From sequence record PZ445451.1: a DNA stretch of 64,000 nt. The stretch is one strand, 5' to 3'. Positions 3,618 through 57,791 of this stretch are shown here, piece by piece; positions within the stretch are counted from its first letter, which is position 1, and the number at the start of each line of letters is the position of its first letter. Made by a program: the position numbers and the translations under genes. A model generated the notes under the pieces. That model saw only the letters and a list, made by a program, of their open reading frames with translations. It did no database searches and had not been told where the DNA came from. The DNA comes from a phage.

Positions 3618-6392
3618 TTAGTTTATCAGTTTATTTATGTCTGGTAAAAGATTTATTTCACCTAAGAAATCACCTTCACCTTCCTCTAGCCAACTCTCAT
3701 ATGCTTGTGCATGATTATAGTTACCATCAAAAGAATCTGCAACAAATTTTTCTACAGTTTTTCGAGATGTGCCAGCGCCAAATACACCAAGTTTAATACT
3801 ATTGATCGGTAAAGTGGTGCTTGTTGGTACTTTCTCTGTTGCAACACGGTTGATATCTATAATCTCCTGTACGGTTGTGTTCCATTGTAAGCATTTAACA
3901 CAACGGGTATGCGCTACATACAGTAGGTTTCGCTCTGCCTCTTCCAGTCCTACCCATTCACCAGTTTTTTTATCATAATTGGAAGGAAAATCATTAGCAA
4001 CAATAACCTGATCCCACTCCAAACCTTTAGACTTGTGTGCTGTAGTCAATGTGACTTTTGCTGTAGGAGAATTTCTATGCGTTCTAAGTGTATGTGCTAT
4101 AGTGTTTGCCTTGCCAGAAACTACGATGTTTAACAAGCGTTTAGCATCTGGATCAGCCTCTGCACACTCAACAAATTCATTCCAGTCTGCGTAAGGTAAT
4201 ACAGTTTCATGTTTTACTTTCTCAATATCTCCTCTCCGAAGAGCATTAACACTATCTACCATAGAGATAAAATCCCTGGTATCTACGTTAATAATAATTT
4301 CTTCCCCATCTGCAATACGATCCATTGCCTCCATAAGCAAGGTTAAATTCTTGCGAAAGATGATAGTGTAAGGTTTTGTATAGTCTACAACATCTGATTT
4401 GTAGCTACCTACTACAGTATCAAAGCCTTTACCAACCAAAGGATGACGCAAAGGTTCTTTATCGCTTAAAATCATATTGGCAATGTTTGCCACTTTGGGG
4501 CCAAAACGGAAGCAAGCAGTTAATGGAAGCTCTGCCCCATACTTAGCTGTTTCAATCATCATATTAGAGCTACCTCTAAATTGATAAATGCAGTTGTGGC
4601 TAAGAATTTCATTGCCAAAGAAGTTAGCAGTATCCTCTACTTCAATATCATAATAGATACCCTCACTATCTACAATGTCCACAATCTCTTCTGCCGTTAC
4701 AGTATCACCATCTTTTACCAACACAGACATGCCTTTAAACAAACCCGCTGCCGGAATTAAGTTATATTTGGCACTGTTCACAGAGGACATGCATTCTTTT
4801 AAAGATGCAAACGGAACTATTTCAAGGATCTTTTGTGCAAAACTCAATGCTTCACGATAAGAATTGAAATATTTACGTACACGGTAACGACCTTCCAATT
4901 TAGCAGCACTTACGCTTACACCTGCTTTAATCAGTGAAGAATAGATCGGCATTTCACTTTCTGTCCACTCAAAACTAACTTGTGTTCCTTTACAACCTTG
5001 TGCTCGCAAAGTCACTGTTAGCATTTTTCTTTCATCTACTGCACAATTGATGCTGTGCCAGTGTGGATAAGCAAAATGATAATCTTTATCCTCTAAAAGT
5101 TTAAAACCATTTTGTCCGAATTGTTCAAAGATGTTATTGATCCTTTCTTGATTAATGCCGCGTGAACTTGCTTCAAATACACAAGTAGGAATGCCATATT
5201 GTAAACTGTATGCCATTTCTTTTTCCATAGCAGCTTCACGGTTTTCAACAATATCCAACACCCATAATTTCTGTGCTTTTTCAGAACGTGTACGTTGCCC
5301 CAGTTTAGAAAAACCTTCTTTATCATCGAATTTGTTAGTGATCCCTACTCGGAAACCTAAATCTTTCCTCCACATTAGGTATACCACCATCTGATCATCT
5401 TTCAGAACATAGGATGAAGCCCAAATACGATGGTTATGTGTCATATCTAAAGTTTTACCTGTGGCAGTAATAATATTCCTACCTTTTGTACGTGTAGATA
5501 AAGTCTTATTTGTTACTTTTCTAAATGTAATTTTACCATTAGAATAAGACTCTACCTTATCACCGATTTGTAGGTCTTTCATTGTAACCTGACCATTCTC
5601 GGTATTAAGTACCGTGTTTTCCGACACACATTGGAATTCATCGCCCACTACCACAATTTGTTTTGCAGATTTAGCATTTCGCAGAATAGACAAGAATGCA
5701 GGGTTAACATCCTGGAATTCATCACCAAAAATAATGTCATAACCAAGATCAGCACCTGATAACTCAAACAATTTTACATAGGTGTCATGCGTCATCAAAG
5801 TATCTGTGTTAGGATCAATGCGCTCTCGCCACAATTGTTTTGCATACTTAACTACTTCTGTAATTAGTTTGTGTTCGTTAATACCTTTTCTTTTAATATC
5901 TGCAAGATGTACACCAGGGAAATGTTTACGGCTGATAAAAGGATCATCCGAAAATTCAAACTTACCTACGGTTTGCTTGATCATTAAACCAATCATAGCA
6001 CGAGTTAAAAGTGTTTTCCCTCGTTTATCAATAAGATTATTAATCTTAAATTTCTTTGCTATCTCACTACCTGTACCTGCAACGTTAACATACTGTCCTT
6101 CTGGTCGTGACAGTTTTGCACGTAAACGATGATCCAGGAATTGATAGCAAATGGAATGCAATGTACGGCATTCTACATTTGGTGGCATCTTACGCCGTGC
6201 TTCTTCTGCCATGCTTTTATTGAAAGCTAAGTAAAGAATGCGATCTTCTGTACTGTTAGCCAGCAAATAAAGTGTTGACGTTTTGCCTGATCCAGATTTA
6301 GCTTGGATAGTTAAAAAACGATGGTCTGGAAAAGCCTCCTTAATAGCTGTTTGCTCTTCTGTTGGAGTAAAACTCAACTCTTTCTTAGCCAT
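3618..6392 (-). CDS. SF1 UvrD/PcrA-like DNA helicase, intein-containing precursor
   Basis: Track ORF; start moved to MAKKELSF (ATG 6392). Walker A AKSGSGKTSTL, motif II FGDEFQD, motif III GDEFQ|CIYQFRG split by an in-frame insert, C-terminal TTAHKSKGLEWDQVIV..LLYVAHTRCVK. Confidence 0.85.
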   Translation of the reverse strand: MAKKELSFTPTEEQTAIKEAFPDHRFLTIQAKSGSGKTSTLYLLANSTEDRILYLAFNKSMAEEARRKMPPNVECRTLHSICYQFLDHRLRAKLSRPEGQYVNVAGTGSEIAKKFKINNLIDKRGKTLLTRAMIGLMIKQTVGKFEFSDDPFISRKHFPGVHLADIKRKGINEHKLITEVVKYAKQLWRERIDPNTDTLMTHDTYVKLFELSGADLGYDIIFGDEFQDVNPAFLSILRNAKSAKQIVVVGDEFQCVSENTVLNTENGQVTMKDLQIGDKVESYSNGKITFRKVTNKTLSTRTKGRNIITATGKTLDMTHNHRIWASSYVLKDDQMVVYLMWRKDLGFRVGITNKFDDKEGFSKLGQRTRSEKAQKLWVLDIVENREAAMEKEMAYSLQYGIPTCVFEASSRGINQERINNIFEQFGQNGFKLLEDKDYHFAYPHWHSINCAVDERKMLTVTLRAQGCKGTQVSFEWTESEMPIYSSLIKAGVSVSAAKLEGRYRVRKYFNSYREALSFAQKILEIVPFASLKECMSSVNSAKYNLIPAAGLFKGMSVLVKDGDTVTAEEIVDIVDSEGIYYDIEVEDTANFFGNEILSHNCIYQFRGSSNMMIETAKYGAELPLTACFRFGPKVANIANMILSDKEPLRHPLVGKGFDTVVGSYKSDVVDYTKPYTIIFRKNLTLLMEAMDRIADGEEIIINVDTRDFISMVDSVNALRRGDIEKVKHETVLPYADWNEFVECAEADPDAKRLLNIVVSGKANTIAHTLRTHRNSPTAKVTLTTAHKSKGLEWDQVIVANDFPSNYDKKTGEWVGLEEAERNLLYVAHTRCVKCLQWNTTVQEIIDINRVATEKVPTSTTLPINSIKLGVFGAGTSRKTVEKFVADSFDGNYNHAQAYESWLEEGEGDFLGEINLLPDINKLIN
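4593..5630 (-). mobile_element. Intein (346 aa) inserted in helicase motif III
   Basis: Insert begins CVSENTVLNTENG (block A), has TxxH-like MTHNHRI (block B) and ends ..YYDIEVEDTANFFGNEILSHN followed by extein Cys. Removing it restores GDEFQCIYQFRG. Coordinates derived from track residue numbering (residues 268-613). Confidence 0.75.
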
Positions 6393-17338: not shown

Positions 17339-17890
17339 ATGCGGATTACTGATAAGTATGTGTTCTTCTTTTCAGCAAAAGATGAATTTAGCAACTGGTA
17401 TCTATCATCTTTTATTGAACCTTTAGCACCCAAGTATAATAATTCTATTACAAGTTCTGTTGAATTTACTTGTGTGGAACAATATATGATGTGGAGAAAA
17501 GCATGTTTGTTTTATGATTACAGTATTGCATCTTCTATTTTAACCGGAGATCTAAGATATACAGGAGAAAAAGAACAAGCATATTATAAGCGACTAGGCA
17601 GATTAGTTAAAGATTATGATGAAGATACCTGGACTTCTTTACGGGAGAAGATTGTCAAACGTGGTTTGTATCTTAAATACACACAAAATGAAGATCTCAA
17701 AAATAAACTTATAGCCTACGCAGATAAGGAGTTCGTAGAGGCAAGCCCCTATGATTCTATTTATGGTATCAAAATGGGGATGTGGGATCGTGATGTGGAA
17801 AATAAGGACTGTTGGAAAGGACAAAATCTTTTAGGAAAATGGCATACAGACCTTGCTGTTTATCTAAAAACACAATCTGATATTTCCTGA
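17339..17890 (+). CDS. NADAR (YbiA/DUF1768) family protein
   Basis: Track ORF; FFFSAKDEFSNW..EQYMMWRKA..W..REKIVKRGLYLKYTQNEDLKNKL..EFVEASPYDSIYGIK..CWKGQNLLGK matches NADAR signature. Confidence 0.8.
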   Translation: MRITDKYVFFFSAKDEFSNWYLSSFIEPLAPKYNNSITSSVEFTCVEQYMMWRKACLFYDYSIASSILTGDLRYTGEKEQAYYKRLGRLVKDYDEDTWTSLREKIVKRGLYLKYTQNEDLKNKLIAYADKEFVEASPYDSIYGIKMGMWDRDVENKDCWKGQNLLGKWHTDLAVYLKTQSDIS

Positions 17891-42324: not shown

Positions 42325-43137
42325 TTATTTAGTCAAATGATCTTCTATCATTTTTATGAAAGCAGGATTGCTAAAAGCATCTGCGGCCTTTTCTCGATAA
42401 ACAAAAACTCCTCTATCTTCGTAAAGAAGAGTTTCTTCGTAATTAATTCCTGGGTTAACAACAATCATTTTTGTACCCATACTAAGTGCAGGGAATAATT
42501 CCCAATTAAAATTGATAACTTGGTTTGAACATCCTACTACAACAACCAAATCTTGCATGGTCAAAGTATCAAACAAGTGAGCCATATCTGCATACAAAGG
42601 TGCAGCCTCACCAAAAAATACAACATTAGGCTTCACCCAGTTGTAATCATCTATGTTTATACTGTTGTAACCAATATCTACCAGTGTTTTGTAGTCCCCA
42701 GGATGCATACGGTAAACTACTTCAGGAAGATATCCGTGCACGTGGATAACAGAATCCCTGTCTACACCTGCTCGCTCTAGTAGATCATCAACGTTTGTTG
42801 TCAAGTTTACTACTTGGTTAGGATATTCCTTAAACCACTTTGCTATTTGAATATGTGCAGCATTAGGTTGTACATCTTTAAGCTCAACACGTCTTTTGTT
42901 ATAAAATTCGTGTGTTTTGGCATACAAATCCATACCGTTTTCGTCTACACCACCAACCACTGGAAGATCTGGTGATGTTCTCACACGATAACCTGCTTGG
43001 AAAGCTCCAATATCGCAGATCTCTTCTAAATCCCATTCTTCCCATAGGGCACGACCACTATCTGTGTCTGTTCGGAATGTTCGAATCCCACTGTCTGCAC
43101 TTAAACCAGCTCCACTAACAAAAATTACTCTTCGCAT
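42325..43137 (-). CDS. Sir2-family (sirtuin-like) NAD-dependent deacylase/ADP-ribosyltransferase, zinc-less
   Basis: Track ORF; VIFVSGAGLSADSGIRTFR (GAGIS..SGIP.FR), TTNVDDLLERAG (QN.D.LH..AG), IHVHG (catalytic His), KPNVVFFGE, VVVGCS; no CxxC zinc ribbon between HG and FGE. Confidence 0.75.
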   Translation of the reverse strand: MRRVIFVSGAGLSADSGIRTFRTDTDSGRALWEEWDLEEICDIGAFQAGYRVRTSPDLPVVGGVDENGMDLYAKTHEFYNKRRVELKDVQPNAAHIQIAKWFKEYPNQVVNLTTNVDDLLERAGVDRDSVIHVHGYLPEVVYRMHPGDYKTLVDIGYNSINIDDYNWVKPNVVFFGEAAPLYADMAHLFDTLTMQDLVVVVGCSNQVINFNWELFPALSMGTKMIVVNPGINYEETLLYEDRGVFVYREKAADAFSNPAFIKMIEDHLTK

Positions 43138-44343: not shown

Positions 44344-44466
44344 TTACCCCCAATGTATATGGGAAATTACCCAAAAGATAAATTCCCAAAAACACCAACC
44401 AAGAAAAGTTAATGGAATTATAAAAGCTATCAGAGCAGTCTTCCAGCCTTTCCACAATGTTTCCAT
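44344..44466 (-). CDS. Small hydrophobic peptide (40 aa, METLWKGWKTALIAFIIPLTFLGWCFWEFIFWVISHIHWG)
   Basis: Manual ORF; start overlaps stop of methyltransferase gene (TAATG), stop 2 nt before next ATG. Confidence 0.35.
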   Translation of the reverse strand: METLWKGWKTALIAFIIPLTFLGWCFWEFIFWVISHIHWG

Positions 44467-45455
44467 TATTCCCCCATAGATTTAAGAATATGTGCAATGA
44501 CAGGTATAGTCCAACCGTTGCCTAACATCTTATATGCTTGTGTGTTACTACTCACTTTAAAGTAATCATCTGGAACACCTTGTAAGCGGCAACACTCTTT
44601 AACCGTTAACTTTCTATAATGTACGCCTTCACTCAATTTTTCAAAGGCATCTAGATATTTTCCAGGTGGAATGTAAGCTAGTAGTACGTCTTTAGGCACA
44701 GTCGTGAGGCAACGAGTTTTTTCACTGTCCTGAACTTCCAAACAATGTACCAAACGATCAGTTTTAGATGTACTACGTTTGCCATTTTCATTAATTCTAC
44801 GCCCATATATTGCTGCCGGATAAAAAACCAGTTGTCTGCGACTCTTTTCAAAATACTGTTCTATATTACCACCTTTGGCATAATTTGCATCTATGCAATA
44901 AGCCTTATCTCTGTCTACAATACTATCATCTTCAATGATATCTTGCAACACTTCATTGGTAATATTCCAAGGTTTTATTTCCCAATTGCACCAGTATAAA
45001 CGTTGCCTATTCTGTGCAGTGAAATCTGCGGAGTTAATGAATACGGGATCAACACCTAAGTAACTTGTGATCACGTTTTCCCACTCCACCTTCATCTTAA
45101 CGTTCTCAAGCATGAACTTAACATTAGGGTTAAACTTTTTAATATGTTCAAGAATTTCAACATACTCAAAGAACAGTTTAGATCGCGGATCTTGAAAGTT
45201 CAAACCCTTACCAGAAGAAGAGAAGCCTTGGCACGGGCTACCACCTAACAAAAGATCAATTTCTCCCCACGGGATATTCCATTCTCTCCATTTTGTAACA
45301 TCACCTAATTGAACAATATCTGGAAAATTGGCTTGGCTTTCAGCTATGGCAAATTTGTCTAATTCTGAAGCATAATACTTATCTACTTCAATACCTGCGC
45401 TTTTTAGTGCAAGCATTCCTCCTGACATACCATCAAAAAGACTTAAAACTTTCAT
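44466..45455 (-). CDS. DNA (cytosine-5)-methyltransferase
   Basis: Track ORF; motif I LSLFDGMSGG, motif IV GGSPCQGFS, motif VI FMLENVK, motif VIII QNRQR, motif X GNGWTIPVIAHI. Confidence 0.85.
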   Translation of the reverse strand: MKVLSLFDGMSGGMLALKSAGIEVDKYYASELDKFAIAESQANFPDIVQLGDVTKWREWNIPWGEIDLLLGGSPCQGFSSSGKGLNFQDPRSKLFFEYVEILEHIKKFNPNVKFMLENVKMKVEWENVITSYLGVDPVFINSADFTAQNRQRLYWCNWEIKPWNITNEVLQDIIEDDSIVDRDKAYCIDANYAKGGNIEQYFEKSRRQLVFYPAAIYGRRINENGKRSTSKTDRLVHCLEVQDSEKTRCLTTVPKDVLLAYIPPGKYLDAFEKLSEGVHYRKLTVKECCRLQGVPDDYFKVSSNTQAYKMLGNGWTIPVIAHILKSMGE

Positions 45456-45925: not shown

Positions 45926-45952
45926 ACAAAAAACCCGCCGAAGCGGGTTTAT
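45926..45952 (-). terminator. Rho-independent terminator (CCCGC-TTCG-GCGGG-TTTTTTGTT on minus strand)
   Basis: Seen directly. Confidence 0.6.
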
Positions 45953-45953
45953 A

Positions 45954-46211
45954 TTATTCTACAGGAACTTCTTCACCAAGAGAAACTTCTAAACGGAATG
46001 CTTTACTTTCAATACACTCACTACCTTTTAGAAAATCAAATTGCACTATAGACTGACTTAATAGAATAGATAGAATCACATCGCAATCTTCACTAGGAGC
46101 TAGATGTTTGTATTCTTCCTTCAAGGTAACATCATAAAAACATAAATCCCCTACTCCTAGTTCATCCCATCCTTCCCACGCATCTACAAAGTTAAACTCT
46201 AAACCTTTCAT
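45954..46211 (-). CDS. Hypothetical protein (85 aa)
   Basis: Track ORF. Confidence 0.5.
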   Translation of the reverse strand: MKGLEFNFVDAWEGWDELGVGDLCFYDVTLKEEYKHLAPSEDCDVILSILLSQSIVQFDFLKGSECIESKAFRLEVSLGEEVPVE

Positions 46212-46732
46212 ACAACCTCCTCGTAATTGTTATTGTGTTTTACTGTCTCAACATACAATAAAGATTCCATCTGTAATACATTACCAGAAATAATAAACCC
46301 ATAAGCCATTTCAGATGTGTCTATATCATATGCCCCGTCTTCCGGTTTAGCAAAGTGTAAAACTATTTCATCTGGGTTTTCTTCATCCCATATTTTAGAA
46401 ATTTTTCGAACCAGAATATTAGCTAAAATAGTTGACATTCGGGATAAAGCTGTATCCTCGTATCTTTTAAAACCTAACCAATAGAGGTTAAGAATTTCTA
46501 CTTCTTCTTGTGTTAAGTTTTTGTCTAAAGTAATCAGATCTGTAGGATACATCGTTTTTGTTGAACCTACTATTACAAAACCTGGAGTGTTATGAAAAAC
46601 AATCTTAACTTTATCACGTATGAAGTTTAAACCTTGTGCCTCAACTATATATTGTATTGTAGGTACAATATCGTTTGTTACATCAATAAAGCTATCTTTA
46701 ATGACGCTTATATTATTTCTGGACAAGACCAT
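46208..46732 (-). CDS. Hypothetical protein (174 aa)
   Basis: Track ORF. Confidence 0.55.
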   Translation of the reverse strand: MVLSRNNISVIKDSFIDVTNDIVPTIQYIVEAQGLNFIRDKVKIVFHNTPGFVIVGSTKTMYPTDLITLDKNLTQEEVEILNLYWLGFKRYEDTALSRMSTILANILVRKISKIWDEENPDEIVLHFAKPEDGAYDIDTSEMAYGFIISGNVLQMESLLYVETVKHNNNYEEVV

Positions 46733-47291
46733 TCTCCTCTAAAATAGGTTTAATAAATTCGAAGATTTGTTTTTTACTTTTACCTCGAATATTAAAACAA
46801 GGAACATTAAACTTTTTAGCCAACATCCAAGCTGTTCTTGTACCACCTAAAGGATCTCCATTTTTATCTGTATTTGCACAAGCTAAAAGAAAACAAGATG
46901 GTTTTGGATTCTCAAGATCTCTGCCAAGAACTTGGTGGATATTTCTTTGATGTAATTTTTTAGCACCTTGAGATAATCTGTCCCAAGCTGGATGCAATTC
47001 TTTTGCATATTGCAAGGTTAGAGCATAGTTTACACTATCTGGTCTGTCAAGAACAATAACCTCTCCTTCTATCTCATTACCTTTAAACGAAGGCCAAGGA
47101 ATGTATATTTCTTTCTTTGTATTGTTTCCACTATCATATACCCCGCATTCAAATGCGGAATCTGCACCTTCTGCTTTACCAGATCGCAAAATGAACCATG
47201 TAGATAACCATTTTGCAACAGCTACCATAGTGTCCCATTCTTCGTCTGTAATATCTCTGCTACCAACACCTGTGTAGAATAAATCGCTCAT
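46713..47291 (-). CDS. DprA/Smf-like (SLOG superfamily) Rossmann-fold protein
   Basis: Track ORF; start moved to MSDLFYTGVGSRD (AAGGAG SD). YTGVGSRDIT..LRSGKAEGADSAFECG resembles DprA core (GSR..Y...SG.A.GID.A.H). Confidence 0.55.
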   Translation of the reverse strand: MSDLFYTGVGSRDITDEEWDTMVAVAKWLSTWFILRSGKAEGADSAFECGVYDSGNNTKKEIYIPWPSFKGNEIEGEVIVLDRPDSVNYALTLQYAKELHPAWDRLSQGAKKLHQRNIHQVLGRDLENPKPSCFLLACANTDKNGDPLGGTRTAWMLAKKFNVPCFNIRGKSKKQIFEFIKPILEENGLVQK

Positions 47292-47301
47292 GGTTTTCTC
47301 C

Positions 47302-47622
47302 TTAACAAGTAATATTGGGAATAATACTGGGAGTAACAATTGGAGTAATAGGGTACGTAAACCAAGGGCTTCCAATTTCCCAAGGACTATAAGGTGTACG
47401 AGGATCAAATGGAGGCGTTACTTGAGGCTTTTTCCAAATCTCCGCTAGTTGTTTCTTCCATTTATCCCTTGCTGTATCGTTATCTTCATCCAACTGTTCG
47501 TCATTATCTTTTATTTCTGATTTTGGAAATAAAAGCTCTTTGACTAACTCAACGTCTTCCGTTTCAATAGTAGTTTCTTTCGTAATATTCCCTACCGTCT
47601 CTTTAATTGTGACTTTATACAT
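47302..47622 (-). CDS. Hypothetical protein (106 aa)
   Basis: Track ORF. Confidence 0.5.
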   Translation of the reverse strand: MYKVTIKETVGNITKETTIETEDVELVKELLFPKSEIKDNDEQLDEDNDTARDKWKKQLAEIWKKPQVTPPFDPRTPYSPWEIGSPWFTYPITPIVTPSIIPNITC

Positions 47623-48368
47623 TAGTCCTCCTCTAAAGTAGAATAAAATTGTAACGTATTTGAATCATCAAAATATGCAAAGGTTAAATTACCATTGAAG
47701 CAAGATCCTGTATCCATATATACCCTATTACTGCTAATTACAGGTTTAGGAACATAAGAATGCCCGTGAAATACATAATCTACTCCTGAAACTCTAGGAA
47801 GAAGAATCCCTTCAAGGGCGCAATCTATCATATCACGATCCCACATTAAAGATTCTGTGAATCGAGATACTTGCTCTTTATTCATATTCAAACAAAATGG
47901 CAAAACTTCTGTCACTGGTAAATGTTCCAAAACTGAAGGATACCCACCGTGAATAAAGCCTAGTTTCATATCACGATAATTGACAACAAGTACAACAGGT
48001 AAATCTTCTAGCATCAAAGCAAGAGCAGTTGCACCCTCTTCTCCACACTCGTCTAGAACTGTATGGCCTCCGTTCTGAAACCAACATTCGTAATATCGTC
48101 TATCACCTTCTAGCAACCCTTTAATCATCATATCTTCATGATTTCCACGAATACCATAACGATTTAGCTTTCTGGTGAATTCAACAACACAACGAAAATT
48201 CTGCTTGCCGCGATCTGTAAGATCTCCTAAAGATACAACAACATCTTGATCTCGGATACCTAAAGTATTAACACCTTTCTGGTACAAATCAAAGCAACCA
48301 TGTAAATCACCAATAATAAACAGGTCTTGATCATCTTTTACACTAATTTCTTGATATACTAGCATCAA
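47622..48368 (-). CDS. Ser/Thr protein phosphatase (PPP/metallophosphoesterase family, lambda-PPase-like)
   Basis: Track ORF; GDLHG, GDLTDRG, GNHE motifs in canonical order. Confidence 0.8.
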   Translation of the reverse strand: MMLVYQEISVKDDQDLFIIGDLHGCFDLYQKGVNTLGIRDQDVVVSLGDLTDRGKQNFRCVVEFTRKLNRYGIRGNHEDMMIKGLLEGDRRYYECWFQNGGHTVLDECGEEGATALALMLEDLPVVLVVNYRDMKLGFIHGGYPSVLEHLPVTEVLPFCLNMNKEQVSRFTESLMWDRDMIDCALEGILLPRVSGVDYVFHGHSYVPKPVISSNRVYMDTGSCFNGNLTFAYFDDSNTLQFYSTLEED

Positions 48369-48691
48369 CTCTCCTCAAAATCCATAAGTATAAAGATATT
48401 AACTTTACCTTCTATATTATGTTCTACAACAAGATCTGCAAATTCTTTGTAGGCTTTTTCTTCTATTTGTTCAATGTGAGACGCTACATCTTTGTATATA
48501 GCGTCACCATCTACTTTAACAAGGAGGAATAGAGATCTTACTTCAATCTCTTTATTTTTACGGGGTAGAAAATCGACGGCTTCTTGTATACGCCAGCCGA
48601 GATACCCTGGAGTCCTTTGAATATCCTCCAAATGACTTTCTAAGATTTCCCTTCCTTTGTCTATTAAAGCCTGTTCTGTCGTTATTTTCAT
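48365..48691 (-). CDS. Hypothetical protein (108 aa)
   Basis: Track ORF. Confidence 0.5.
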   Translation of the reverse strand: MKITTEQALIDKGREILESHLEDIQRTPGYLGWRIQEAVDFLPRKNKEIEVRSLFLLVKVDGDAIYKDVASHIEQIEEKAYKEFADLVVEHNIEGKVNIFILMDFEES

Positions 48692-49498: not shown

Positions 49499-50161
49499 TT
49501 ATTTAATATTCAATTTTGCACAAAGACGTTGTACCGCTTTGGCATCGAACAAACTCCCACGAATAGTTCTCTTTCCTGATTCATTCAGATGCTTTGCAAT
49601 CGTCATATATGGCGTTTTACAAGCTCTGTATGCAACTAAAGAATCTTTTAAAGAAAGCGCAAACTCTCTTGAGCGTTTTGCTTCTTCCGTTTTCGTATAG
49701 TCTGTTCTTTTGTATTTAGGGTTTGCTGCACCAAGAAGCGTTCCCTTCGCTTTTGCTACCTTAAGGCTCTTCTTAACACGATCAGATATTGCACGAGCCT
49801 CTTCTTCTGCCAGAACTGCTAAAATATTTATTATCATATTTTCAGCGGAGGGCATAGTTGCTATTCGTACATTAATCATCTCTAACAAGGTTGCAACAGA
49901 AGCTGTGTTACGTCCAAGACGGTCAACCTTAGCAACAACAAGTGTAGCACCTGTTTCTTTGCAAAGATTAACAGCTTTTACAAGCTCTCTACGTTGCTTC
50001 CAATCGCCTTTACCCGAATAAAACTCTGCAAAGCTACCTACAATAGTATAATTTTCTTGTGAATCCAGGAAGCGTTGAATATCTGCTTCCTGTGATTCTA
50101 TACCATACTGGTTGCCTTGTTGTTTCTTCTTAGAAAGTCGATGATATAGTACAAACTTCAT
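49499..50161 (-). CDS. Small serine recombinase (resolvase/invertase family) with C-terminal HTH
   Basis: Track ORF; N-terminal YHRLSKKKQ (catalytic Ser), VAKVDRLGRN, EEEARAISDRVK, C-terminal HTH ..YMTIAKHLNESGKRTIRGSLF. Confidence 0.8.
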   Translation of the reverse strand: MKFVLYHRLSKKKQQGNQYGIESQEADIQRFLDSQENYTIVGSFAEFYSGKGDWKQRRELVKAVNLCKETGATLVVAKVDRLGRNTASVATLLEMINVRIATMPSAENMIINILAVLAEEEARAISDRVKKSLKVAKAKGTLLGAANPKYKRTDYTKTEEAKRSREFALSLKDSLVAYRACKTPYMTIAKHLNESGKRTIRGSLFDAKAVQRLCAKLNIK

Positions 50162-50434: not shown

Positions 50435-50673
50435 TCGTTGTTACGAGCACTTTCAAGAACCTTGACAACTTCTGCATACTCTACAGCTAAACCAGCACAC
50501 ACTTCAGCTTGTTTTGCAATTGCTTGTTTAAAGAACATAGCGATTGCAACACTCTGTGTTGTGTGAATGTTATCTGCTTTAGTTGATACATGAAGATCAA
50601 AATCTTCTTCATCAAAGGTGAGTTCCATAGTAACAATAAATTTCTCGGTCATAAAAATGCTCCTCTTAAACAA
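50422..50673 (-). CDS. Hypothetical protein (83 aa)
   Basis: Track ORF. Confidence 0.5.
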   Translation of the reverse strand: MFKRSIFMTEKFIVTMELTFDEEDFDLHVSTKADNIHTTQSVAIAMFFKQAIAKQAEVCAGLAVEYAEVVKVLESARNNDWEE

Positions 50674-51175
50674 AATAGAAAGGTTGAGTTAAACCCAGCC
50701 TGTTTTTTGGGTCGTAGACGTACCAAGCATATGCTGTCTTATCAGTACCACCTGCAACAAAAGATGGTCGTTCAGCAAGAACAATCAAATTTGTTGGTGG
50801 ATTCTGTTTATGGAATTCCCTTCGTTTAATAGACTCTAGGAACCCAAGACGCAACAAGTATATGCAAACGTCTGCTTCTTTTAAGCTCTTTTGCAAGAAC
50901 TCAAGTGCAAGTCTGAATGGTGGATTTGTGATTATAATATCCGGCTTAGTATGCCATTCGTGGTTAAAATAATCCTTCCCTTCTTCTAACTCACAATATT
51001 CTGATCCTTCTGGAAAATGTTGATAAATTGCAGCAGCAGCGCCTTTACACGGTTCTGCAAAAATAAAACCTTCTTCTTTAAGGTTATTAAAATCTATTAC
51101 ACTAAATAATGCATTTATACATTTTTGTGGAGTAGGATAGTAATCAGTTGGTGGACGATCATACTTATTTGCCAC
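50666..51175 (-). CDS. Putative DNA amino-methyltransferase (N6-adenine or N4-cytosine)
   Basis: Track ORF; DYYPTP near N-terminus, AdoMet-like FAEPCKGAAAA, catalytic IIITNPPF (D/N-PP-F/Y) motif. Confidence 0.65.
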   Translation of the reverse strand: MANKYDRPPTDYYPTPQKCINALFSVIDFNNLKEEGFIFAEPCKGAAAAIYQHFPEGSEYCELEEGKDYFNHEWHTKPDIIITNPPFRLALEFLQKSLKEADVCIYLLRLGFLESIKRREFHKQNPPTNLIVLAERPSFVAGGTDKTAYAWYVYDPKNRLGLTQPFYFV

Positions 51176-54266: not shown

Positions 54267-54533
54267 TTACTCCGCAATCTGAGCCATGAATTCACGTAGT
54301 TCAGAAAAACCTCCTACGTGGGTTAGCTGTTCACCATCTTCCACAAAAATCTGAGGAAATGTGCGTGGTAGAACACCTGTTTTCTCTAAAACCAGATTCT
54401 GAATCTGATCTAAAGAATAGTCTTCATCTAAGGTAAGGTATTTAAAATCCTGTTCACGCTGTTCCAGTAGAATCTTAGCGTTAGTGCAGAAAGGACAATT
54501 TGGTTTACCGTAGATAATAAAATTCATTTTCAC
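54267..54533 (-). CDS. nrdC: NrdC-like thioredoxin/glutaredoxin
   Basis: Track ORF; 88 aa, IIYGKPNCPFCTNAKILL..FPQIFVEDGEQLTHVGGFSELREF parallels T4 NrdC (VYGYD..CVYCDNAKRLL..QVFAPDGSHIGGFDQLREY). Confidence 0.8.
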   Translation of the reverse strand: MKMNFIIYGKPNCPFCTNAKILLEQREQDFKYLTLDEDYSLDQIQNLVLEKTGVLPRTFPQIFVEDGEQLTHVGGFSELREFMAQIAE

Positions 54534-55360
54534 TCCTTGTTTAAAAGTATAGTTAAAGTTCTTACAATACCGCTATCAACACTTCGCGGATTTAAAGTAG
54601 GATCTGTTTTTAAATAAGATGTTGCTGGTCTGACTGCTTTGGAATTATAGGTTGAAGCAGATACAGGATTAACTGTAACAGACAAATCTATAACAAGAAA
54701 TATCTTTCGTGCAAAATCATACCAAGAAATATAATCTGCACCTGCATAGTGTACAATTTTACTATTTACACCATCTTTTACAAGTTTAAAAATTGTTTCT
54801 GCAAGATCAGGTGCATAAGTAGGACATGATAAATGATCACATACTACATTAAATTCTTTTTGACCACCGTTGTAGCGTTCCAACATAGTTTTCAAAAAGT
54901 TATGTCCAAATTCACTATAAACAGAAGCTGTTCTGATAATAAGTGCTGTAGGACAAACTGCTTGTACTAAAGTTTCACCTAATTGTTTACTGTAACCGTA
55001 GGTGTTCAAGGGGTTTGTTTTACTCTCTTCTGTGCCAGCAACATGTCCATCAAAAACATAGTCTGTTGAAATATGTACAAACTGTATCAGTAAATCATTA
55101 CATGCTTTGGCAATGTTTGTTGCACCGTATGCATTAACATTTATACAGGTGTTAACATCTTCTTCAGCTTTATCTACTGCCGTGTAAGCCGCACAATTCA
55201 CAACAACATCAGGCACGTGCTGTACAAGACTATTCATAACATCTTTAAAGTTGGTAATGTCTATATCACTTGCTTCAATCAAAATAACATCTTCGGGCGC
55301 AACTTTTGCCAAAGACTGTCCTAATTGACCTTTTGAACCAAAGACTAAAAATTTTGTCAA
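54530..55360 (-). CDS. rmlD: dTDP-4-dehydrorhamnose reductase
   Basis: Track ORF; N-terminal LVFGSKGQLGQSL Rossmann motif, size and operon position after rmlC. Confidence 0.8.
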   Translation of the reverse strand: MTKFLVFGSKGQLGQSLAKVAPEDVILIEASDIDITNFKDVMNSLVQHVPDVVVNCAAYTAVDKAEEDVNTCINVNAYGATNIAKACNDLLIQFVHISTDYVFDGHVAGTEESKTNPLNTYGYSKQLGETLVQAVCPTALIIRTASVYSEFGHNFLKTMLERYNGGQKEFNVVCDHLSCPTYAPDLAETIFKLVKDGVNSKIVHYAGADYISWYDFARKIFLVIDLSVTVNPVSASTYNSKAVRPATSYLKTDPTLNPRSVDSGIVRTLTILLNKE

Positions 55361-55911
55361 AATATGATCTCCTTTAGTGTTTTGGCTTCCTGATCTTTTT
55401 GTGACAAGATAGGTTTAAAATTAATATCATTAAAGATTAAATCAAAACCCCAATCTATATTGATATCTGGATCATTCCACGCAAGACTACACTCTGAAGT
55501 CGGATCGTAATATTCCGTACATTTGTATTCAAAATCAGCAATATCACTAATCACAACAAAACCATGAGCGAAACCAGGAGGAATCCAAAATTGTGTTTTA
55601 TTCTTTTCAGATAAGAGAACACCTACCCATTCTCCAAATGTTGGACTACCAACTCTAATATCTACAGCAACATCATAAACTTCACCACGAACACAACGTA
55701 CTAACTTCCCTTGTGGGTTTTTCTTTTGAAAATGAAGCCCACGTAGAACTCCTCGGATAGAACGTGAATGGTTATCTTGGACAAAGTTTTGTTTACCTAT
55801 GTATTGATCATATAAAGCCTGATTAAAACTTTCTAAGAAAAAGCCACGTTCATCTCCGTAAACGTCAGGTTGAATGATCAACAAATCTTCGATTTTTGTT
55901 GCTTGAATCAT
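55357..55911 (-). CDS. rmlC: dTDP-4-dehydrorhamnose 3,5-epimerase
   Basis: Track ORF; ..DERGFFLESF..RGLHFQ..QGKLVRCVRGEVYDVAVDIR..PPGFAHGF typical RmlC cupin motifs. Confidence 0.85.
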   Translation of the reverse strand: MIQATKIEDLLIIQPDVYGDERGFFLESFNQALYDQYIGKQNFVQDNHSRSIRGVLRGLHFQKKNPQGKLVRCVRGEVYDVAVDIRVGSPTFGEWVGVLLSEKNKTQFWIPPGFAHGFVVISDIADFEYKCTEYYDPTSECSLAWNDPDINIDWGFDLIFNDINFKPILSQKDQEAKTLKEIIF

Positions 55912-55923
55912 TTAATTCCCCCT

Positions 55924-56793
55924 TTATTTTAATTTAAGTAAATACTTACCGTAGTCTGTTTTACTTAAAACCTCTCCAGAACTTTTTACAGAGTCTAAAG
56001 TAATCCATTCATTTTTAAAAGCAATCTCTTCCAGGCATGCAACCTTCATACCTTGTTGCTTCTCTATTGCATGAACAAATTGAGATGCTTCCATAAGACT
56101 TTCATGTGTTCCTGTATCCAGCCAAGTGAAACCTCTTCCTAGTTTACAGACACGTAAAGTCTTTTCTTTCCAGTACATCTCATTTATATCCGTAATCTCT
56201 AACTCCCCTCTAGCAGAAGGTTTAACGCTCTTAGCTTTCTGTATAACAGAATTATCGTAAAAGTACAAGCCTGTGATTGCGTAGTTGCTTTTTGGTGTTT
56301 TTGGTTTTTCTTCAATACTCACCACTGTACCTTCAGAATCAAACTCAACAACACCAAATCTTTCAGGATCATTTACGTGATACCCAAAAATATTAGCTCC
56401 ACCATTCTTTTCAATATGTTCTTTAGCAGAATCTAAAATGCTACCAAAACTCTGACCAAAGAACAAATTATCACCTAGAACAAGTGCTACAGAATCTTCA
56501 CCAATAAAGTTCTCACCAATAATAAATGCTTCTGCTAAACCTTTTGGGCTGTTCTGTACTGCATACTGTAGGGAAATACCAAAAGAAGAACCATCACCTA
56601 AAAGATTTACAAAATTAATTTGATCTTCTGGTGTTGTAATTATTAGTATTTCCCTAATTCCAGAAAGCATTAGGACAGAGAGTGGATAATAAATCATAGG
56701 CTTATCGTAAATTGGTAATAGTTGTTTACTAACCCCTTTAGTAACTGGGTAAAGTCTTGTTCCGCTACCACCTGCTAAGATAATACCTTTCAT
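55924..56793 (-). CDS. rmlA: Glucose-1-phosphate thymidylyltransferase
   Basis: Track ORF; [36 protein letters not shown]. Confidence 0.9.
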
Positions 56794-56801
56794 ACTCCTC
56801 C

Positions 56802-57791
56802 TTAAACTTTATTTTCCCACCACTCTTTGTTATCTACATACCAATCAATGGTTGAATAAAGTTTTTCTTCAAATGTGCCTTTAGCTTTCCACCCTAATTC
56901 CTTTTCAATCTTATAAGGATTCACTTCATATCTTAGATCATGTCCAGGTCTATCTGTAACCATCTCAATTAGGCTACAAGCATCTGTTTCAGATGGATAC
57001 ACCGCATCCATATAATCACAAATCATATAGATTACATCAATATTAGTTCTAGGGTTTCTGCTCCCAATATTATATGTTTCTCCAGATTTGCCTTTAGTTA
57101 CTACTAGGTGTAATGCTTCTGCGTGATCGTCAACGTATAACCAGTCTCTTACTTGAAGACCATTGCCATAAACAGGGATTGGTTTATTCATCAAGATATT
57201 TGTTATCGTTTTAGGTATCAGTTTTTCTGGATGATGATATGCTCCAAAATTATTTGAACAATTTGTTATAACTGTCGGAATACCATAAGTACGATGCCAC
57301 GCTCTTACCAAATGATCGCTTGCTGCCTTAGATGCAGCATATGGACTACTTGGCTTATAAGGATTCTGTTCTGTAAACGGATAATCCCCTTCTTCCATAT
57401 CACCATACACTTCATCTGTTGAAATATGATGAAACATTTTAAGATTTGATTTATCTCCCATTAAACGAACAGCTTCTAGAAGATTAAATGTTCCAACAAT
57501 ATTTGAATTTATAAAAACACTCGGTGATGCTATTGAATTATCTACGTGACTTTCTGCTGCAAGATGCATTATATAATCTGGGTTAACATCTGCCACAATC
57601 TTAGCAGTTAACTGAGCATTTGTCAAGTCAACACGACAAAACTTTACATTAGGTGTTTCTGATAAATTTCTAGGGTCTGAAGCGTAACCCCATTTATCTA
57701 TAACGTAAATATCATTCTTAGTATTTTTAGCCAGGAAACGAACTACTGCACTTCCAATAAAGCCTAAACCACCTGTTACTAAGTATTTCAT
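56802..57791 (-). CDS. rmlB: dTDP-glucose 4,6-dehydratase
   Basis: Track ORF; [31 protein letters not shown] (YxxxK), HISTDEVYG. Confidence 0.9.

Follow-up and report, generated by a model that had tools for sequence, protein, structure and literature searches.

A stand-alone DprA-like SLOG protein of Escherichia phage PaulScherrer and its possible part in NAD+/ADP-ribose counter-defence

What does a phage do with a small protein that resembles the core of DprA? The question is raised by one gene in a 64,000-nucleotide stretch of phage DNA, referred to here as the window. An initial annotation had read the product as a DprA/Smf-like SLOG protein that could assist recombination-dependent replication or bind a nucleotide signal. 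The gene, its family and the general prediction of an ADP-ribose-related role are already public, and the label 'DprA-like' stands in both GenBank and the PHROGs. What such a label implies for the function of the protein is the subject of the following sections.

The gene, its family and its surroundings

The reading frame lies on the minus strand (Table 1), encodes 192 amino acids with the TAA stop included in the coordinates, and specifies a stand-alone SLOG protein of DprA-clade type. Window positions 46000-48500 are 100% identical to MZ501100.1, Escherichia phage PaulScherrer (Bas60; Stephanstirmvirinae, Justusliebigvirus), a member of the BASEL collection that grows on E. coli K-12; a window position equals the MZ501100 record position minus 64,675. 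The protein itself is 100% identical to PaulScherrer bas60_0193, labelled 'putative DprA-like recombination protein' in GenBank, whose CDS (record 111388..111966) corresponds exactly to the window interval and uses the same ATG. A strong Shine-Dalgarno sequence, AAGGAG, is read 6 nt ahead of the ATG at 47291 and shares bases with the stop codon of the upstream gene (TAA, 47302-47304). A longer frame of 231 amino acids from a TTG at 47408 was discarded as a product of extending the ORF mechanically; it runs through that upstream gene. Both peptide strings quoted in the initial annotation are present in the translation (YTGVGSRDIT, residues 6-15; SGKAEGADSAFECG, residues 37-50), and the gene that it called is borne out by the ORF, the Shine-Dalgarno sequence, the matching GenBank CDS, a PHROG 768 match at E=2.2e-60 and many homologs. 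Thus bas60_0193 is a real gene, closely packed with neighbours on the same strand.

The PHROG 768 match covers nearly the full length, pairing residues 2-186 with positions 2-184 of the 191 in the profile, and the group carries the label phage 'DprA-like DNA recombination-mediator protein'. Most of its members are stand-alone proteins of 160-210 aa. The family is large: at E<=1e-3, 238 homologs are present among the 90%-identity clusters, and searching 1.84 billion representatives with a profile returned 5,983 clusters (50% identity) at the same cut-off and 1,978 at E<=1e-30. By tblastn the family is present in 1,514 of 50,697 phage records (about 3%) as well as 29 plasmids; hosts of these phages include Klebsiella, Pseudomonas, Escherichia, Vibrio, Aeromonas and Acinetobacter, and the family is also carried by conjugative elements. 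Four records described as 'Campylobacter phage' with C. jejuni as host (MG065639, MG065645, MG065656 and MG065689) are 98.6% identical to PaulScherrer, an E. coli phage, over 2.5 kb, and their host assignment looks doubtful.

Table 1. Window coordinates of the SLOG gene, its surroundings and two NAD+/ADP-ribose-related genes
Feature	Position	Strand	Basis
Stand-alone SLOG (DprA-clade) CDS, bas60_0193	46713..47291	-	ORF, PHROG 768, GenBank CDS
Shine-Dalgarno AAGGAG of the SLOG gene	47298..47303	-	read directly
106-aa gene directly upstream, 10 nt from the SLOG start	47302..47622	-	PHROG 15301, no function label
NinI-like Ser/Thr phosphatase (metallophosphoesterase), further upstream	47622..48368	-	public-record annotation
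174-aa gene downstream, 20-nt overlap with the SLOG gene	46208..46732	-	PHROG 8569, no function label
85-aa gene, last before the terminator-like hairpin	45954..46211	-	PHROG 4991, no function label
Terminator-like hairpin, 8 bp with 5 G-C pairs, then a T-run; AAACCCGCTTCGGCGGGTTT	45931..45950	-	
Promoter-like TTGACA-N17-TAAACT directly after the hairpin	45926-45898	-	
Sir2-family gene bas60_0185, 3.6 kb downstream of the SLOG gene	42325..43137	-	PF02146, E=2.8e-22
NADAR (YbiA-like) gene bas60_0111, 29 kb from the SLOG gene	17339..17890	+	PF08719, E=3.5e-36

From this arrangement we infer that the 106-aa gene and the SLOG gene form one transcription unit. The 174-aa gene is probably coupled to the SLOG gene in translation, since the two overlap; its product has no Pfam match and no PDB sequence match. 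A neighbour cluster of about 173 aa, which is probably the family of the 174-aa gene, occurs at several offsets in related loci, and this suggests paralogs. The hairpin likely marks the 3' end of the unit that contains the SLOG gene, terminator-like sites being more frequent than expected (4 observed against 1.2). Together with the promoter-like sequence, of a kind whose sites do not exceed the shuffled expectation (10 against 10.8), it looks like a boundary between the SLOG block and the block of a Dcm-like methyltransferase.

Several other features of this genome deserve mention in their own right. Three DNA methyltransferases are annotated, namely the Dcm-like C5 enzyme (44466-45455, minus strand), an N6-adenine enzyme (about 50666-51175, minus strand) and a Dam-like enzyme (MZ501100 38298-39029), and they suggest extensive self-methylation against restriction. 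A serine recombinase or DNA-invertase-like gene of 220 aa lies at 49499-50161 (minus strand), and no integrase or lysogeny genes are annotated in the record. An intein-containing UvrD/Rep helicase is annotated at 3618-6392 (minus strand), and the DNA polymerase, outside the window at MZ501100 41715-45029, contains an intein too. A complete dTDP-rhamnose biosynthesis cluster (RmlA-D-like) is annotated at about 54530-57791 (minus strand) in the same leftward array, and possibly serves DNA or surface glycan modification.

Fold, conserved residues and comparison with DprA

An alignment of 38 diverse homologs of the window protein (A1) contains 20 invariant positions, which comprise F69, S132 and four blocks: G10-S11-R12, R36-S37-G38-x-A40-x-G42-x-D44, H114-x-R116-N117-xx-Q120-xx-G123 and G149-G150-T151-xx-A154; W66 and H100 are near-invariant. 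In SLOG proteins of solved structure these positions contact a nucleotide, or ssDNA, at its phosphate, ribose and base. AlphaFold2, given A1, returned one compact domain (mean pLDDT 96.6, pTM 0.92) in which residue 4 opens strand 1 and the chain stops after helix 173-186. The model displays the three-layer alpha/beta Rossmannoid arrangement with ligand-site loops after strands 1-3 that characterizes the SLOG superfamily, and on this model we assign the fold as a SLOG Rossmannoid with high confidence. A Foldseek search against the PDB, a check that had been proposed with the initial annotation, placed H. pylori DprA first (E=2.3e-6), ahead of the Moco-carrier protein (2.6e-5), ShosA (3e-4), LOG proteins (8.3e-4 to 9e-3), the ThsA SLOG (about 1e-3) and YpsA (2.8e-3), a structural ranking that by itself fixes no SLOG clade.

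Sequence comparison does point in one direction. Scanned against Pfam and NCBIfam, the window protein itself produced no match, and none to PF02481 (DprA) even at E<=10. Among the 38 homologs, however, 30 touch PF02481 below threshold, the best at E=3.6e-6, with reported scores of 15.6-20.8 bits against a Pfam gathering threshold of 29.6 bits. The other Pfam SLOG families are represented by LDcluster4 in 3 of the 38; LOG (PF03641), YpsA and YAcAr matches number zero. A phmmer search of PDB sequences yielded one chance match (NSA2, E=0.76), and a search with the family profile ranked designed coiled coils on top, with DprA entries only at E 0.1-1.3. Aligned by hhalign with a five-sequence DprA-core alignment, A1 matched over motifs I-II only (47 columns, 72% probability, E=3.3e-5); against E. 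coli Smf alone the probability was 8.9%. Isoelectric points do not discriminate: the window protein has 6.8, its family spans 5.4-9.4 and DprA cores span 5.8-9.2. Taken together, the sub-threshold PF02481 matches and the forms of the GSR, SGxAxGxD and RN motifs make the sequence lean to the DprA clade. The DprA-like fold and homology called by the initial annotation are upheld, and a placement in the LOG family, which it had named as an example of an outcome that would speak against it, was not seen: no homolog matches PF03641 and the LOG motif is absent.

How much of DprA is left in the phage protein? DprA/Smf (PF02481, COG0758; H. pylori 4LJK/4LJR, S. pneumoniae 3UQZ, R. palustris 3MAJ) shares with it the SLOG Rossmannoid core, the motifs GSR, SGxAxGxD, RN and [SG]G[ST], and an I-Y-x-P segment after strand 3; the core motifs of the window protein (G10-S11-R12, S37-G38-K-A40-E-G42-A-D44, R116-N117 and G149-G150-T151) keep their conserved positions in 38 of 38 sequences. 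Correspondences of the C-terminal motifs with DprA come from a gap-free alignment by eye. HpDprA contacts ssDNA through arginines R52, R143 and R170 (PMC12961424). Mapped via the PDB sequences, R52 and R143 correspond to R12 and R116, both invariant in the family, whereas the counterpart of R170 is the non-conserved M156. The two retained arginines are no proof of DNA binding, because they occupy generic phosphate-binding positions in SLOG proteins that bind mononucleotides. The SAM and winged-helix (DML1) domains of DprA are absent, and no family member scanned has a Pfam match to either. In S. pneumoniae DprA, residues M238, H260, Q264 and L269, whose letters agree with the 3UQZ sequence, were reportedly found by Quevillon-Cheruel and colleagues in 2012 to be needed for RecA binding and dimerisation. 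M238 aligns with the variable K159 of the window protein, and the other three lie in a C-terminal helix and strand that the family has not conserved or that many members lack; on sequence grounds, the DprA dimer/RecA interface is not conserved in the phage SLOG family. The genetic settings differ too: DprA belongs to competence regulons, whereas the phage family is found in virulent phages and mobile elements, where fusions to NADAR, DUF4326 and Macro domains set it apart from DprA/Smf. On our favoured reading, the phage protein shares ancestry with the DprA core but would not load RecA as DprA does.

Domain fusions and the NAD+/ADP-ribose gene set

Fusions were surveyed among the best 150 representatives of the 5,983 clusters. 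Fourteen of these are at least 250 aa long: four are fused to NADAR (P0121, P0122, P0134, P0218), three to DUF4326 (P0185, P0231, P0242), and seven have extensions without a Pfam match. P0074 is DUF4326-fused as well, which brings DUF4326 to four proteins overall. An Erythrobacter plasmid protein has a C-terminal Macro domain, confirmed by Pfam, and a second plasmid match is annotated as macro domain-containing. The SLOG parts of the fusions share 32-48% identity with the window protein and keep all or nearly all of 22 checked conserved positions, with departures only at W66, H114 and S132; at such identity this retention indicates that the fused modules belong to the same family and do not just share its fold. 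Among the proteins surveyed, none was seen to be fused to a recombination domain. The polyvalent protein P0121 (1,475 aa; L092 8001-12428, a 115-kb ENA metagenome contig) joins this DprA-like SLOG to SLOG domains of two other families, YAcAr and LDcluster4, and to NADAR; its gene adjoins ParB_N, SNF2-type helicase, HigBA and RadC genes, a setting that we read as the anti-defence region of a conjugative element.

Gene neighbourhoods were sampled in 80 IMG/VR loci, which group into 38 lineages when the focal proteins are clustered at 65% identity. None of the neighbours is shared by all lineages; the commonest is PhoH (8 of 38). As raw lineage counts within 5 kb, Macro occurs in 5, PRPP-synthetase-like genes in 4, NADAR in 2 and DUF4326 in 1; by raw count, no more than roughly one lineage in four has ADP-ribose-related genes at this distance, and the counts are at most suggestive of a link to ADP-ribose genes. 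Some plasmid copies of the SLOG gene are found near RdgC, DUF1071, SSB, SRAP or RecA genes. On Aromatoleum plasmid 1 an RdgC gene (L090 4681-5625) is 2 kb from the SLOG homolog.

PaulScherrer itself encodes a full set of NAD+/ADP-ribose genes. Besides the Sir2 and NADAR genes of Table 1, a Macro gene (bas60_0070) and a ComF-like PRTase gene (bas60_0071) are situated 51 kb and about 50 kb, respectively, from the SLOG gene and cluster with a HAD hydrolase gene at MZ501100 59888-62103. A pair of PRPP-synthetase-like and NAMPT-like genes (MZ501100 143141-145839) resembles published phage NAD+-reconstitution pathways. The Sir2 gene may be functionally tied to the SLOG gene. NADAR is fused to this SLOG module in other elements, and here bas60_0111 may partner the SLOG protein in trans.

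Comparative studies place these observations in context. Viral SLOG proteins have been described as mostly stand-alone, as co-occurring with Macro, NADAR and Nudix genes, as fused to Macro, NADAR and DUF4326 domains, and as predicted sensors or cleavers of ADPr-derived immune signals, with most of them assigned to a YpsA-like clade (Iyer, Burroughs, Anantharaman and Aravind 2022, PMC9503650). The bas60_0193 family shares with them the stand-alone phage form, the Macro/NADAR/DUF4326 fusions, co-occurrence in genomes with Macro, NADAR and sirtuin genes and a greater frequency in larger phages, and the network described in that study is matched here by the recurrent fusions and by the Macro, NADAR and SIR2 genes of PaulScherrer. 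The family, however, scores nearest to DprA and has no YpsA or YAcAr Pfam match, so that the 2022 prediction may not rest on it.

In the EVADES preprint (10.1101/2025.06.06.658234), a phage protein with the annotation Smf/DprA, ORF83, is listed among inhibitors of type III Avs and predicted to have AMP phosphoribohydrolase activity. By its published description, ORF83 resembles the bas60_0193 family in having a SLOG fold, an RN motif and a pocket Thr, DUF4326-fused relatives and no DprA dimer/RecA residues. It differs in the spacing from RN to T (22 residues against 30-34) and in its best PDB matches, which are LOG proteins and not, as for bas60_0193, HpDprA. Compared by description only, the two may be sister families.

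Competing readings and their implications

The reading that we favour, tentatively and at slightly less than even odds, is that the SLOG protein is a ligand-binding or ligand-processing module in phage NAD+/ADP-ribose counter-defence. Such a role is likelier than RecA loading because relatives of the protein are repeatedly fused to ADP-ribose-processing enzymes. The pocket would bind a ligand that contains ADP-ribose, either an immune signal or toxin that derives from NAD+ and is free in solution, or ssDNA that bears an ADP-ribose adduct. The protein would then sequester this ligand, hand it to other enzymes or process it and, acting in trans with the Macro protein bas60_0070 and the NADAR protein bas60_0111, could blunt NAD+/ADP-ribose-based host defence early in infection. 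Several observations weigh against this account: most members, bas60_0193 included, are stand-alone and the Macro and NADAR genes are far away here; no neighbour recurs in every lineage, and most lineages have no ADP-ribose-related gene close by; the 2022 prediction may concern another SLOG clade; and the plasmid copies near RdgC, DUF1071, SSB, SRAP or RecA genes fit a DNA-centred role equally well. A more general proposition, which we regard as doubtful, has the DprA-clade SLOG recognize the ligand or excise the base within an anti-ADP-ribose counter-defence that is widespread among phages and plasmids. In one version it may read ADP-ribosylated ssDNA (DarT-type damage) for Macro or NADAR glycohydrolases, an attractive idea since it reconciles the DNA and ADP-ribose signals; in the other it may sponge or cleave an ADPr-derived immune signal.

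The GenBank and PHROG label, and one of the two ideas of the initial annotation, imply instead a minimal DprA, which binds and protects phage ssDNA through the GSR/RN pocket or delivers it to a recombinase, be it host RecA or an annealing protein of the phage, in support of recombination-dependent replication or repair. The kept signature motifs, the equivalence of R12 and R116 to HpDprA R52 and R143, the leading Foldseek match and the 30 homologs that touch PF02481 are all in keeping with it. Residues corresponding to R12 and R116 are needed for ssDNA binding in ShosA, some plasmid copies have the DNA-related neighbours noted above, and jumbo-phage DprA-like SLOGs have been suggested to be extra ssDNA-binding proteins (Iyer et al. 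2021, PMC7824862). Nevertheless, we judge this reading unlikely. The window protein fails to reach PF02481 and its homologs stay under the gathering threshold, the hhalign match covers motifs I-II only, the SAM and winged-helix domains and the third ssDNA arginine are missing, the RecA/dimer residues fall on variable K159 and a variable C-terminal helix, and the retained arginines are generic to SLOG pockets. It is NADAR, DUF4326 and Macro fusions that recur, not recombination-domain fusions. Furthermore, no RecA/UvsX is annotated in the PaulScherrer record; there is instead a 'putative recombination protein' (MZ501100 133745-134629; L009 5746-6630) that is RdgC-like (PF04381, E=3.7e-20). RdgC antagonises RecA in E. 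coli. Of the two functions first suggested, recombination is the less probable, and the initial interpretation is borne out in part.

Could the protein be an enzyme of the LOG kind, which splits AMP or a different mononucleotide at the N-glycosidic bond and thereby changes the nucleotide pool or destroys a signal? This would parallel what the EVADES authors predicted for the anti-Avs3 protein ORF83, yet it appears improbable. None of the 38 members matches the LOG Pfam family. LOG proteins carry the motifs GGGxxGxMG and PGGxGTxxE with a catalytic Glu, in place of which the phage family has SGxAxGxD and GGTRTA, and the position of the catalytic Glu (Thr +3) is taken by the invariant A154 in a gap-free motif alignment by eye. 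The catalytic motif of LOG/PpnN phosphoribohydrolases is thus absent from bas60_0193, and there are no Pfam matches here to the LOG/PpnN, Moco-carrier or ThsA SLOG families. The ThsA SLOG is, moreover, fused to a Sir2/TIR-type partner, whereas bas60_0193 has no fused Sir2 or TIR.

A further precedent is ShosA (8ZVA, 9VZO), a DprA-like protein that acts in phage defence through ssDNA and RecA binding (PMC12961424). It shows a DprA-type SLOG core at work in phage-host conflict and has the GSR and RN arginines in common with the phage protein, which might on this basis mimic ShosA and neutralise ShosT-type PRTase toxins once the host antitoxin is lost in infection. We consider this very improbable. 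As an antitoxin ShosA depends on RecA binding, on its dimer interface and on its SAM domain, none of which is recognisable in the window protein, and the window protein resembles ShosA no more closely than it does other SLOG proteins. Nor are helix alpha14, the obligate dimer or the adjoining PRTase toxin ShosT seen for bas60_0193, which is a single domain with a phosphatase and proteins without function label as neighbours and no adjoining PRTase. The probability that is left after these readings falls to something else.

What are the implications of NAD+/ADP-ribose counter-defence for the family as a whole? The 'recombination mediator' label probably misleads, because the domain fusions point to NAD+/ADP-ribose conflict, and it is under this label that about 3% of sequenced phage records carry the family. 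If the SLOG protein is indeed an ADP-ribose counter-defence module, this would provide a first function for about 6,000 sequence clusters that are now mis-annotated, and would link the ssDNA pocket of DprA evolutionarily to the handling of nucleotide signals.
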